From positions 1 to 64,000 of the IMG/VR virus record IMGVR_UViG_2595698760_000001: a DNA stretch of 64,000 nt. One strand, given 5' to 3'. Positions 14,668 through 16,854 of the stretch are shown here, piece after piece; within the stretch, counting starts at the first letter, position 1, and each line of letters begins with the position of its first letter. A program made the translations under genes and the position numbers. The notes under the pieces are model-generated. The model worked only from the letters and a program-made list of their open reading frames with translations. It had not been told where the DNA came from and ran no database searches. Origin of the DNA: a virus (taxonomy: Duplodnaviria; Heunggongvirae; Uroviricota; Caudoviricetes; Schitoviridae).

Positions 14668-14871
14668 ATGTGGTTACGTGTCTATCTGCAGGCTGTGCTT
14701 GCAGTAATTATCTCCTTGTTTCTGTACGGCTATGTCTTCCCTCGTATGGTGTCTGCACCTGATACCTTGCTTGTTATGGGTGGCATCGCTGGTGCTCTGA
14801 TTTGGCCAGCACTGCTGGTTTGGTTCTTCCGCAAACGTGTAAGGAAAATGCTGTCATGCGTAAAATTCTGA
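14668..14871 (+). CDS. Small inner-membrane protein (67 aa, 2 predicted TM), first gene of the envelope cassette
   Basis: Two hydrophobic helices and a basic C-terminus. Confidence 0.5.
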   Translation: MWLRVYLQAVLAVIISLFLYGYVFPRMVSAPDTLLVMGGIAGALIWPALLVWFFRKRVRKMLSCVKF

Positions 14872-15689
14872 TTGCCGCGGCAATCCTCGGTGCTGTCACC
14901 ACTCTGACCGGCTGCTATGAGCGTGTCGAACCAGGTAACGCTGGTGTACTGGTAAACCGTCTCGGTGACGAAAAGGGTGTTGATGCTCAACCTCTGGGCG
15001 TCGGCCGCTACTGGGTAGGCTGGAACGAAGACCTGTATACGTTCCCAACCTTCAAGCAGATGAAATCGTATCCAGACCCGTTCATCTTCCAGATGAGCGA
15101 CGGTACGACCATCGGCTACTCAATCGGTATCGCATATCGTGTGACGCCGGCAAAAGTGACCACTGTGTTCCAGACGTACCGTAAGGGCGTTGACGACATC
15201 ACGGACACTGACCTGCGTCAGAAAATCAGTGACTCACTGAATCGCCGCAGCAGCATGATGAACACTGATAAGTTCATTGATGGCGGCAAAGGCGACATCC
15301 TGACCGGTGTACTGTCTGACCTGCAGAAAGAGATGGGGCCGGTAGGCATCGAAGTCCTCAGCGTGAGCTGGATGGGCAAGCCTGACTACCCGCCGACTGT
15401 TATCGAAAGCATTAATGCCAAGGTAACGGCAAACCAGAAAACTCTGCAGCGTGAGCAGGAAGTAAAACAGCGTGACGCCGAAGCAAACATGCTGCGTGCA
15501 GAAGCTGCCGGTCAGGCTGATGCAAAACTGGCGCTGGCGAATGCCGAAGCCAAGTCCATCGAAATCCGTGGTAAAGCTCTGCGTGAAAACCCAGAGATTA
15601 TGAACCTGGAAGCCATCAATAAGTGGAACGGCACTCTGCCTACCACAATGGTTCCCGGCGCAGCCACTCCGTTCATCTCCATCAAATAA
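14856..15689 (+). CDS. SPFH/band-7 (prohibitin/HflKC-like) domain lipoprotein
   Basis: AAGGAAA Shine-Dalgarno. Signal peptide with lipobox LTGC (MRKILIAAAILGAVTTLTGC). SPFH-like core followed by a C-terminal coiled-coil rich in A, E and Q. Confidence 0.55.
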   Translation: MRKILIAAAILGAVTTLTGCYERVEPGNAGVLVNRLGDEKGVDAQPLGVGRYWVGWNEDLYTFPTFKQMKSYPDPFIFQMSDGTTIGYSIGIAYRVTPAKVTTVFQTYRKGVDDITDTDLRQKISDSLNRRSSMMNTDKFIDGGKGDILTGVLSDLQKEMGPVGIEVLSVSWMGKPDYPPTVIESINAKVTANQKTLQREQEVKQRDAEANMLRAEAAGQADAKLALANAEAKSIEIRGKALRENPEIMNLEAINKWNGTLPTTMVPGAATPFISIK

Positions 15690-15714
15690 GCGTCCGTCAG
15701 GGCGAGGATAACCA

Positions 15715-16854
15715 ATGCGTAAAATTACTGCTGTACTGGGCTTCGCCCTGCTGTCCTTGAGCATCAATGCCAATGCTGCGTTGTACCTGAAATCATCCGG
15801 TGACCAGTGGGGGCCGGCTATCCAGGATTTGCAGAACTCATTCAATGAGGGCGTCAGCTCAAACAAGTTTGACCGCTTCTACAACACCCTGGCCAGCCGC
15901 TTCAATCTGGATGGCTCAAGCGCTGCCGATATTCTGGCGGCGTTTAAAGCCGGTACTGATGTGTCATCACAACCAGCATTCAATGGTTCCCTACCAACTA
16001 CCGGCGGCGGCACCATTACTCCAAGCGTACCTGGCGTGAGCCAAGACGATTTCATTAAAGACCGTGACAGCCAGAACCAGCATATTACTGCTGTTCAGGA
16101 TGCTGCTCAGGTTGCTAATGAGAAAGCCGACGCTGGTGCTGTCCGTATGGACGGTATCGAAAAGCAGGCCGGTGTGCTGGATGGGCGTGTCGGTGCAACC
16201 GAAGTCCGTGCTGACAAGCTGGAAGAAAGCCAGCGTGAGCAGGATAAGCAGATTGCAGTGACCGATAAACGCTCTCAGAACAACGCTGAGCGCCTCGATG
16301 GTGTTGAGCAGGTCAATGACCGCCAGGACAAGCAAATCGCCTCTAAGGTCGATTCAAGCGTGTTCCAGGCTGACCAGCAACGTCAGGACAAAGCGTTAGC
16401 TGCTGAGACCGATAGTCGCATTGCTGGCGACAGCTATGTGAACTCTCGTGTCGATGCGGCAAATGCCAACATCGAAGCCAACCGTCAGGCATCCGTGGCC
16501 ACCAACAAACGTGTGGCTGCGAATACCGCTGCGCTGGCGAACCATGAGCAACGCATCCAGAAGCTGGAGTCAGAGACGAACTCTCGTTTCAGCAATATGG
16601 ATAAGCGTATCGACGACAACAAGCAAAAGGCAGATGCTGCTATTGCCGGTGTCGCTGCCATGGCGAACATTCCTCAGGTAACAGAATCAGCCCGCTTCTC
16701 AGTGGGCGCCGGTCTGGGTACTCGTGGAAGTCAGCAAGCAGTTGCGGTAGGCTTCTCATCCCGTCTGTCACATAGCGTGGTAGGCAAACTCTCTGTTGCC
16801 GCTGACACTGAACAACAGTGGACTGCTGGTGTTGGTATGGCGGTGCAGTGGTAA
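15715..16854 (+). CDS. Trimeric-autotransporter-like outer-membrane protein (signal peptide, coiled-coil stalk, YadA-type C-terminal anchor)
   Basis: Sec signal [21 protein letters not shown]. Stalk built from heptad-like D/Q/K repeats. C-terminus [13 protein letters not shown]...[25 protein letters not shown]...GVGMAVQW matches the YadA_anchor pattern and ends in W. Confidence 0.65.

Follow-up and report, generated by a model that had tools for sequence, protein, structure and literature searches.

Do three consecutive phage genes that all encode envelope proteins work together as one cassette, or are they neighbors by chance? The question is raised by positions 14668-16854 of a 64,000-nucleotide stretch of viral DNA (the window), where a first-pass annotation had noted genes for a two-transmembrane (2-TM) protein, an SPFH/Band-7 lipoprotein and a protein resembling YadA-type trimeric autotransporter adhesins (TAAs), and had interpreted them as an accessory insertion. 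The window matches Erwinia phage vB_EamP-S6 (S6; HQ728266 / NC_019514) at 100% identity and with matching coordinates. S6 is a member of the Schitoviridae, genus Waedenswilvirus, in agreement with the N4-like lytic context proposed earlier. The interval is exactly the genes gp044, gp045 and gp046, and the three consecutive open reading frames (ORFs) of envelope type are thus where they had been placed. RefSeq has names for all of them (Table 1) and PHROGs families exist for each; their gene identities and domain identities are already public and are not news. The earlier observation is correct but overstated as a three-gene accessory cassette. In anatomy and biogenesis, gp044/gp045 on the one hand and gp046 on the other are probably two independent envelope modules that came to be adjacent by chance in the lineage of S6 and phage Fifi011.

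This conclusion is carried by the distribution of the genes. No SPFH or 2-TM gene was found within 8-10 kb at any of 77 loci encoding a YadA anchor (34 viral and 43 genomic), and no YadA anchor was found within 6 kb at any of the 80 IMG/VR loci that contain the closest relatives of gp045. Phage Pastis, of the same genus as S6, encodes homologues of both gp044 and gp045, but its lipoprotein gene is followed by a 100-nt spacer and then the dUTPase gene, with no adhesin gene. N4 likewise has the pair and no gp046 homologue, and gp046 is the sole indel at the locus with respect to Pastis and N4. Because the pair is kept without a TAA in these two phages, and because SPFH genes and YadA anchors showed zero linkage elsewhere, the single-cassette reading is not supported. 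"Accessory insertion" is a fair description of gp046 alone; it does not fit gp044 and gp045, which are conserved in N4, Pastis and many other phages and prophages. The further statement that core genes flank the cassette holds on one side, where the dUTPase gene directly adjoins gp046. On the other side, the AAA+ gene (gp041, 12851-13600) is separated from gp044 by gp042 and gp043.

The genes gp044 and gp045 are the S6 copy of an old, widespread and translationally coupled phage gene pair. The two reading frames overlap by 16 nt, the stop codon of gp044 lying past the start of gp045. In N4, gp19 (68 aa, membrane protein) overlaps gp20 (278 aa, lipoprotein) in the same region, downstream of the RNA polymerase II (RNAP II) genes, as in S6. 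The N4 genes are orthologous to the S6 pair and present no structural difference: gp20 shares 61% identity with gp045 from end to end, and gp19 is 34% identical to gp044 and keeps the loop motif P-x-M-V-S. Searches with tblastn found the lipoprotein in 681 phage records, with relatives in Staphylococcus Kayvirus (MbpS), Pseudomonas phages, P1-like phages, Stx phages and haloarchaeal viruses. Relatives of gp044 were found in 34 phage records, nearly always directly 5' of the lipoprotein gene. About 75 of the 80 IMG/VR loci have an ORF of 60-78 aa with two hydrophobic segments at the start of the lipoprotein gene, with a gap of −19 to +4 nt. Copies with about 70% identity are common in genomes of Salmonella, E. 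coli, Klebsiella, Citrobacter and Enterobacter, and the E. coli copy is situated in a lambdoid prophage between a CI-like repressor and an integrase. The overlap of members of phrog_1130 and phrog_200 on the same strand identifies the S6 genes as this phage 2-TM + SPFH module. A paper from 2026 states that the role of an SPFH lipoprotein in a Schitoviridae phage "remains unclear" (PMC13239085), and our literature search returned nothing on what SPFH lipoproteins of phages, the N4 pair gp19/gp20 or the TAAs of virulent phages do.

The lipoprotein gene may also have moved. Across positions 14898-15491, gp045 is 83-86% identical at the nucleotide level and 76-78% at the amino-acid level to its counterparts in the Erwinia myoviruses Hena1 and pEp_SNUABM_01, whereas identity to the Pastis orthologue is 69% at the amino-acid level, below that of the Hena1-type copies. 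That gp045 is closer to unrelated Erwinia myoviruses than to Pastis suggests gene exchange across phage families that share hosts. Over its C-terminal half, gp046 shares 78% identity with the adhesin of Hena1.

The first protein of the pair is small and simple. Hydropathy analysis of gp044 gave two hydrophobic segments at residues ~1-29 and ~32-54, as the first-pass annotation had supposed, joined by the nine-residue loop PRMVSAPDT and followed by a tail with 6 Lys/Arg per 13 residues. The two segments, the short loop and the Lys/Arg-rich tail argue for an N-in/C-in hairpin with a periplasmic loop and a cytoplasmic tail. gp044 is a member of phrog_1130 (E=1.7e-22), and the residues invariant in its family (Y20, P25, S29, V36, G39 and P47) are centered on the loop. 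In Pfam, DUF2254 at E=0.1 was the sole match with E<=1.

The lipoprotein gene was listed among the ORFs with a TTG start at 14802, as opposed to the ATG at 14856 used here. From the latter, gp045 begins with MRKILIAAAILGAVTTLTG, immediately ahead of Cys20 (encoded at 14913-14915) in the lipobox LTGC. Only three residues further on starts a Band_7 domain (PF01145; residues 23-209, E=3.7e-26, 92.7 bits against a cutoff of 23.6), and the whole protein belongs to phrog_200 (E=1.2e-100). An AlphaFold2 (AF2) model with a mean predicted local distance difference test (pLDDT) of 75 consists of the SPFH domain followed by a 65-residue helix (residues 180-244) that would form a coiled coil. Foldseek aligned this model over ~250-300 columns, always with probability 1.00, to full-length protomers of erlin, prohibitin, HflK/C, stomatin, QmcA and flotillin, and E-values for the first five ranged from 1e-14 to 1e-9. 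A single-sequence search against the PDB gave no match; a profile was required, and the profile search matched prohibitin-2, HflC and HflK. The earlier assignment of the second gene to an SPFH lipoprotein with a coiled coil is therefore borne out by the lipobox, by a Band_7 score well above cutoff and by the full protomer fold. The name "serine protease" that gp045 carries in GenBank is not supported, since Band_7 is its sole significant Pfam match and nothing protease-related was detected; the name has been passed on to Pastis, RCS47 and Stx phages.

These features resemble those of several known SPFH systems. As in the HflK/C-FtsH, prohibitin and erlin cages, gp045 has its anchor just before SPFH1/2, then a long helix of coiled-coil type and, at the C-terminus, a cap region. 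The whole modeled protomer superimposes on HflK/C and would likewise face the periplasm. HflK/C-type cages differ in that they are anchored by a transmembrane helix and built from a hetero-pair, whereas gp045 has a lipid anchor and a single type of SPFH subunit. In the SPFH-NfeD operons (QmcA-YbbJ and YqiK-YqiJ) an SPFH gene is also translationally coupled to a gene for a small multi-TM protein, and QmcA is among the fold matches of gp045. An NfeD identity for gp044 was rejected: no NfeD match was found in Pfam, and with 67 aa the protein has no room for the NfeD OB-fold domain. QmcA faces the cytoplasm, whereas the lipoprotein gp045 must face the periplasm.

From identities, domains, folds, targeting signals, distribution and non-linkage we infer the localization, oligomeric state and biological roles of the three proteins. 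gp044 would insert into the inner membrane as an N-in/C-in hairpin, and gp045 would be exported by Sec, lipidated at Cys20 and held on the periplasmic face of the inner membrane. As a lipoprotein it must point into the periplasm, as HflK/C does; that it stays on the inner membrane is suggested by a Cys-Asp sequence in most of its relatives and by its partner gp044, which exposes about nine periplasmic residues. gp045 could then oligomerize through its long helix into a cage, nucleated on gp044, over the membrane patch that holds gp044, and this cage may sequester or gate an inner-membrane client in early or middle infection. The gating proposal is drawn from analogy with the three SPFH cages that do not face the cytoplasm, those of HflK/C, prohibitin and erlin, and by the same analogy FtsH is the prime candidate for the client. 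An SPFH cage that sits on the inner membrane and opens to the periplasm is thus the most likely assembly of gp044 and gp045.

The sorting signal deserves a closer look. Cys-Asp occupies positions +1/+2 in 78 of the 80 IMG/VR loci and in 77 of 120 homologues, and it is the Lol-avoidance signal for the inner membrane (PMC4623201). The family splits at the residue after the lipidated Cys (window 14913-14921 for gp045). A Cys-Asp-Arg form is found in prophage and chromosomal copies and in Pastis, and a Cys-Tyr/Trp-Glu/Gln/Asp form in S6, N4, other virulent-phage copies and many contigs of N4-like size (34/120), native S6 gp045 being Cys-Tyr-Glu. The two forms may reflect different sorting in virulent and temperate phages, or they may be two alternative retention signals. 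Aromatic residues at +2 are said to have acted as inner-membrane retention signals in a reporter study by Seydel et al. in 1999.

The second module, gp046, is a protein of a different type. Residues 320-379 match the complete YadA_anchor profile (PF03895; profile positions 1-60 of 60, E=6.1e-13, 49.1 bits against a cutoff of 22.7), and phmmer matched the anchors of YadA (2lme) and AtaA (9vnj). The AF2 model (pLDDT 73) has a disordered signal, a confident domain at residues 22-95, a linker, ~200 helical residues (H110-146, H162-211 and H214-317) and, after the last helix, four strands (328-337, 340-352, 355-364 and 369-377). The best five Foldseek matches in the PDB were anchors of Hia, AtaA and YadA, with probability 1.00, target TM-scores of 0.71-0.87 and root-mean-square deviations of 1.5-2.0 Å. 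By a crude measure, the stalk has 5-8 of 8 heptad a/d positions occupied per 28-residue window. Signal peptides of gp046 and its homologues were judged by an n/h/c-region heuristic rather than by SignalP. With its anchor profile, anchor fold, Sec signal and coiled-coil stalk, gp046 has the layout of a type Vc protein, and all elements of its first-pass description, including the C-terminal string GVGMAVQW and an anchor match well above cutoff, could be recovered (Table 1). Its anchor score and the Band_7 score of gp045 lie far outside what chance would give.

Table 1. Positions in the window of the three envelope genes and of the segments of gp046
Feature	Positions	Strand	Description
gp044	14668..14871	+	67 aa; 2-TM hairpin membrane protein; RefSeq "membrane protein"
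gp045	14856..15689	+	277 aa from ATG; SPFH/Band-7 lipoprotein; RefSeq "lipoprotein", GenBank "serine protease"
gp046	15715..16854	+	379 aa; YadA-anchor protein; RefSeq "adhesin"
gp046 residues 1-21	15715..15777	+	Sec-type signal peptide; from sequence; low pLDDT at 1-19
gp046 residues 22-96	15778..16002	+	small N-terminal domain; pLDDT 80-91; probable distal fiber tip
gp046 residues ~97-110 and ~110-317	16003..16671	+	Gly/Pro/Thr linker and helical coiled-coil stalk; AF2, heptads
gp046 residues 320-379 and stop codon	16672..16854	+	YadA-type anchor, four beta-strands, terminal Trp; PF03895

The N-terminal domain, the probable tip of the fiber, is rare. An exhaustive search of 1.84 billion proteins returned 10 cluster representatives. 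All small hits of full length, the Salmonella phage proteins included, have a YadA anchor, and apart from two very large repeat proteins the domain always stands behind a signal peptide. Three short matches (P0241, P0242 and P0245; 75-212 aa) have no YadA anchor and may be truncated. Partial matches to giant FG-GAP and beta-propeller proteins were set aside as motif-level noise. Among these, residues 49-76 of gp046 (window 15859-15942) match 13 repeats of a 2203-aa FG-GAP repeat protein (P0243), a likeness that may come from a calcium-binding-like DxDG motif or may be noise. With a GC content of 0.543, gp046 does not stand out, and a host origin was not supported by a pattern scan, which gave no Erwinia or Pantoea chromosomal relative; the nearest chromosomal copies reach at most 59% identity, over the C-terminal ~140 residues.

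The first-pass annotation had called an adhesin in a lytic N4-like phage unusual. This was overstated, given that relatives of gp046 are present in 70 of 50,697 phage records, that PHROGs families exist, and that prophage-encoded TAAs are an established precedent: these are the Eib proteins, for one of which, EibD, the source of PDB entry 2xqh is given as an Enterobacteria phage. Most of the 70 records are virulent phages of several lineages, and the 70 include three genera of Schitoviridae, Kuravirus, Vequintavirinae, one T4-like phage and several jumbo phages. Plasmids contributed 5 of 72,556 records. The 120 homologues compared are 209-638 aa long (median 387); 116 have a signal-like N-terminus, as do 5 of 5 aligned phage proteins, and 119 end in Trp. 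Their passengers are modular and are composed of coiled coil, collagen-like GXY repeats or an alanine zipper. gp046 shares with TAAs such as YadA, Hia and AtaA (type Vc) the Sec signal, coiled-coil passenger and four-strand YadA_anchor; it differs in being short, in having no YadA head, neck or stalk Pfam motifs, and in its rare N-terminal domain. The Eib TAAs are likewise phage-carried, but they are morons expressed in lysogens, whereas gp046 belongs to a non-structural operon of a strictly virulent phage, and no sequence similarity could be detected between the passengers of gp046 and EibD.

The genomic contexts of these genes vary. Fifi011 has the same three genes in the same order as S6. 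In Salmonella phage FSL SP-058 and three related contigs (Ithacavirus) the YadA-anchor gene is directly upstream of the dUTPase gene, with no SPFH gene nearby; the position before dUTPase is a recurrent site for such genes in the Schitoviridae. The Ithacavirus version at this site has collagen repeats and is preceded by a 131-aa membrane protein instead of the SPFH pair (L003:3356-4879; L014-L017). At the corresponding place in Pastis, the spacer (L002:7582-7680, equivalent to window 15690-16876) holds the terminator-like hairpin GGCCGGTACAAAATACCGGCC with a T-run behind it. Neither flank of gp046 in S6 has a hairpin of this kind. Elsewhere, the gene follows the DNA polymerase gene in MIF8, lies among early genes in phiEco32, and is inside a tRNA island in Hena1, ~18 kb from the SPFH gene of that phage. 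In a 51-kb viral contig with a temperate-type locus it stands just after a tail-fiber gene. The start annotated for the phiEco32 protein gp119 (L005:3539-4336) probably lies too far upstream; read from a Met inside the frame, the protein has a typical signal peptide, MKAIVLSSILALSVMASPVFA. Relatives of gp046 are found in other mobile contexts as well. In Cedecea the gene occupies a site flanked by integrase and insertion sequence (IS) genes, and the closest E. coli relative (P0104, 344 aa) is found on small mobilizable Rep3/MobA-MobL plasmids of ~6-8 kb. These plasmids also carry Mrr-like restriction genes, and in one locus (L126) an HNH endonuclease gene directly follows P0104.

What would such a protein do for a virulent phage? 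Family membership suggests the route: gp046 would be secreted by Sec, three C-terminal four-strand units would assemble into a 12-strand outer-membrane barrel with the help of the beta-barrel assembly machinery (BAM), and the ~200-residue stalk with its small N-terminal tip would be threaded to the cell surface. Display as a trimeric fiber on the infected cell is the most likely outcome. The role that we favor for the fiber is to make infected cells adhesive or auto-aggregating, the generic activity of TAAs, and this would keep the burst within a host-rich, cellulose-producing matrix. The first receptor of S6 is secreted (biofilm) cellulose and not an outer-membrane protein (PMC9544554), and for such a phage adhesion would be a plausible role.

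Several points weigh against the combined picture of a gp044/gp045 cage and an independent gp046 fiber. The three genes are contiguous and probably co-transcribed in S6 and Fifi011, and a lineage-specific functional link is possible. On the side of the cage, gp045 was rejected as a member of HflC/HflK (16.9 bits for the NCBIfam HflC model with its cutoff of 427), although it may work in a similar way, and the analogy with FtsH is purely structural. Moreover, the lipoproteins of S6, N4 and other virulent phages have Tyr or Trp at +2 and not Asp, for which the simple rule predicts the outer membrane, apart from gp044. On the side of the fiber, adhesion by gp046 would be an extrapolation from cellular TAAs. 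No YadA_head, YadA_stalk or other TAA passenger family was found in gp046 with Pfam at E<=1, and Foldseek gave no significant PDB match to its N-terminal domain; the head, neck and stalk motifs of YadA are common in TAAs but not obligatory. The AF2 models of both gp045 and gp046 are of monomers. Each specific role for gp044/gp045 or gp046 is put forward as a tentative suggestion at most.

The main rival to adhesion is that gp046 acts in superinfection exclusion or receptor shielding, with a lawn of ~30-nm fibers blocking adsorption of S6 or its competitors; in a variant of this idea the fiber would stop the loss of progeny on cell debris, as T5 Llp protects T5 progeny. The location of the gene, in a non-structural operon of early/middle type without an internal terminator, is typical for exclusion genes, and those envelope proteins of virulent phages that have a known role are mostly exclusion factors such as Llp. 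T5 Llp and the Cor-type lipoproteins are, like the S6 proteins, targeted to the envelope and made early in the infected cell by the phage. They are, however, small lipoproteins that bind one receptor (FhuA), whereas gp045, at 277 aa, is of the SPFH type and gp046 is no lipoprotein, and no sequence or fold relationship of gp045 or gp046 to Llp or Cor was found with Pfam, PHROGs and PADLOC. A conserved anchor with a highly variable passenger would fit an arms race, but the same tip domain occurs in Erwinia and Salmonella phages, which argues against the masking of one specific receptor, and the first receptor of S6 is a secreted polysaccharide. N4 gp18, in the same region of that genome, is annotated as exclusion-like; on the other hand, the close relative Pastis manages without the gene, and no TAA is known to exclude phages. 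Taken together, exclusion appears unlikely.

Considerably less probable is a reading in which gp044-gp046 remain one functional cassette and gp045, with or without gp044, is a biogenesis helper for gp046, in the manner of SadB and SadA. The precedent is real, in that SadB is a lipoprotein helper encoded beside a TAA (PMC7247746), and in S6 and Fifi011 the genes are contiguous on one strand, with the overlap described above, 25 nt between gp045 and gp046, and no internal terminator. Neither a sigma-70 promoter-like site nor a strong terminator-like hairpin was found inside gp044-gp046, and the three genes are for this reason probably co-transcribed with replication and nucleotide-metabolism genes in lytic growth. 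(The first strong hairpin downstream, at 17819-17836, is GC-rich and terminator-like on both strands; it follows gp048, a member of the N4 Gp49 / Sf6 gene 66 family.) The zero linkage in both sets of loci removes the main support for a SadB-like role, and we rejected the idea on these counts. Pastis and N4 retain the pair without any TAA, Hena1 has both genes far apart, and the SPFH fold of gp045 is a cage-forming one. The reading of two independent modules is retained.

It is very improbable that gp046 and its relatives are virion proteins, that is, tail or tail-fiber proteins in which the YadA-like C-terminus would serve as a trimerization module. The idea comes from existing labels: phrog_17426 and phrog_26246 are in the "tail" category, and relatives are annotated as tail protein, tail fiber or receptor-binding protein. 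Some relatives contain collagen-like repeats, which are common in fibers, and the temperate-type locus mentioned above has the gene next to a tail-fiber gene. A cleavable Sec signal peptide, as seen in nearly all homologues, is incompatible with virion assembly in the cytoplasm, and the anchor is a membrane beta-barrel unit with a terminal aromatic residue. In S6, SP-058, MIF8, phiEco32 and Hena1 the genes lie among replication, early or tRNA genes and not among structural genes. The conserved secretion signal and the non-structural neighborhoods make the labels "tail protein" and "receptor binding protein" doubtful; both "tail protein" and "agglutinating adhesin" look like homology-transfer annotations.

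A part in lysis, such as bridging the two membranes in the manner of a spanin or disrupting the outer one, is hardly credible. In its favor, the three products are of inner-membrane, lipoprotein and outer-membrane type, and a review of spanins (PMC6139136) raises the speculation that phages lacking spanins could use a lipoprotein of the inner membrane together with an outer-membrane protein in their place. But S6 is already equipped with an N4-family spanin of the embedded two-component kind (PMC6139136), located elsewhere, the holin, endolysin and spanin genes of N4 are in its late region ~48 kb from gp19/gp20, and gp045 is an SPFH protein rather than a short proline-rich o-spanin. A search with PADLOC for membership in a defense system returned only marginal coiled-coil matches (PbeC, E=0.0089; JetC, E=0.005), which were rejected.

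Some neighboring genes are worth recording. gp043 (14102-14665) contains DUF7740 (E=1.9e-13) and is kept in Pastis directly upstream of the 2-TM gene. In gp041, the AAA+ ATPase domain (PF00004, E=2.4e-14) was the only domain detected; the gene is labeled "CLP protease" in Pastis and Fifi011, and its position three genes upstream of the SPFH pair is seen in Waedenswilvirus and not in N4. Further downstream, gp049 and gp050 occupy 17904-19186. gp050 has weak matches to an immunoglobulin domain (Ig_3, E=0.003) and to the Hoc-like head-decoration family phrog_4069 (E=0.0013), and may correspond to the N4 decoration protein gp17, which is encoded two genes upstream of gp19/gp20 with gp18 in between.

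The locus thus raises two questions about phage biology: why strictly lytic phages should spend resources on a surface fiber that depends on BAM, and why phages from N4 to those of Staphylococcus, together with haloarchaeal viruses, carry an SPFH protein. S6 and Pastis provide a natural comparison with and without the fiber gene, and with N4 gp19/gp20 the SPFH pair could be studied conveniently in E. coli. Relatives carry the labels "tail protein", "receptor binding protein" and "serine protease"; these look wrong and could lead assessments of host range or phage safety astray. The "adhesin" flag is relevant where S6-like phages are considered for biocontrol of fire blight. A broader idea, speculative and in our view doubtful, is that short signal-bearing YadA-anchor proteins are a mainly phage-borne class (70 phage versus 5 plasmid records) by which at least six virulent lineages (Schitoviridae, Kuravirus, Vequintavirinae, T4-like, jumbo and others) re-surface the doomed host, for instance by gluing infected cells to uninfected neighbors or to the matrix so that the burst lands on new hosts. 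In parallel, pairs of the N4 gp19/gp20 type would be phage-built periplasmic SPFH cages that capture a host inner-membrane machine. If this were true, re-surfacing of the host during lytic infection would be a strategy of lytic phages without described precedent.

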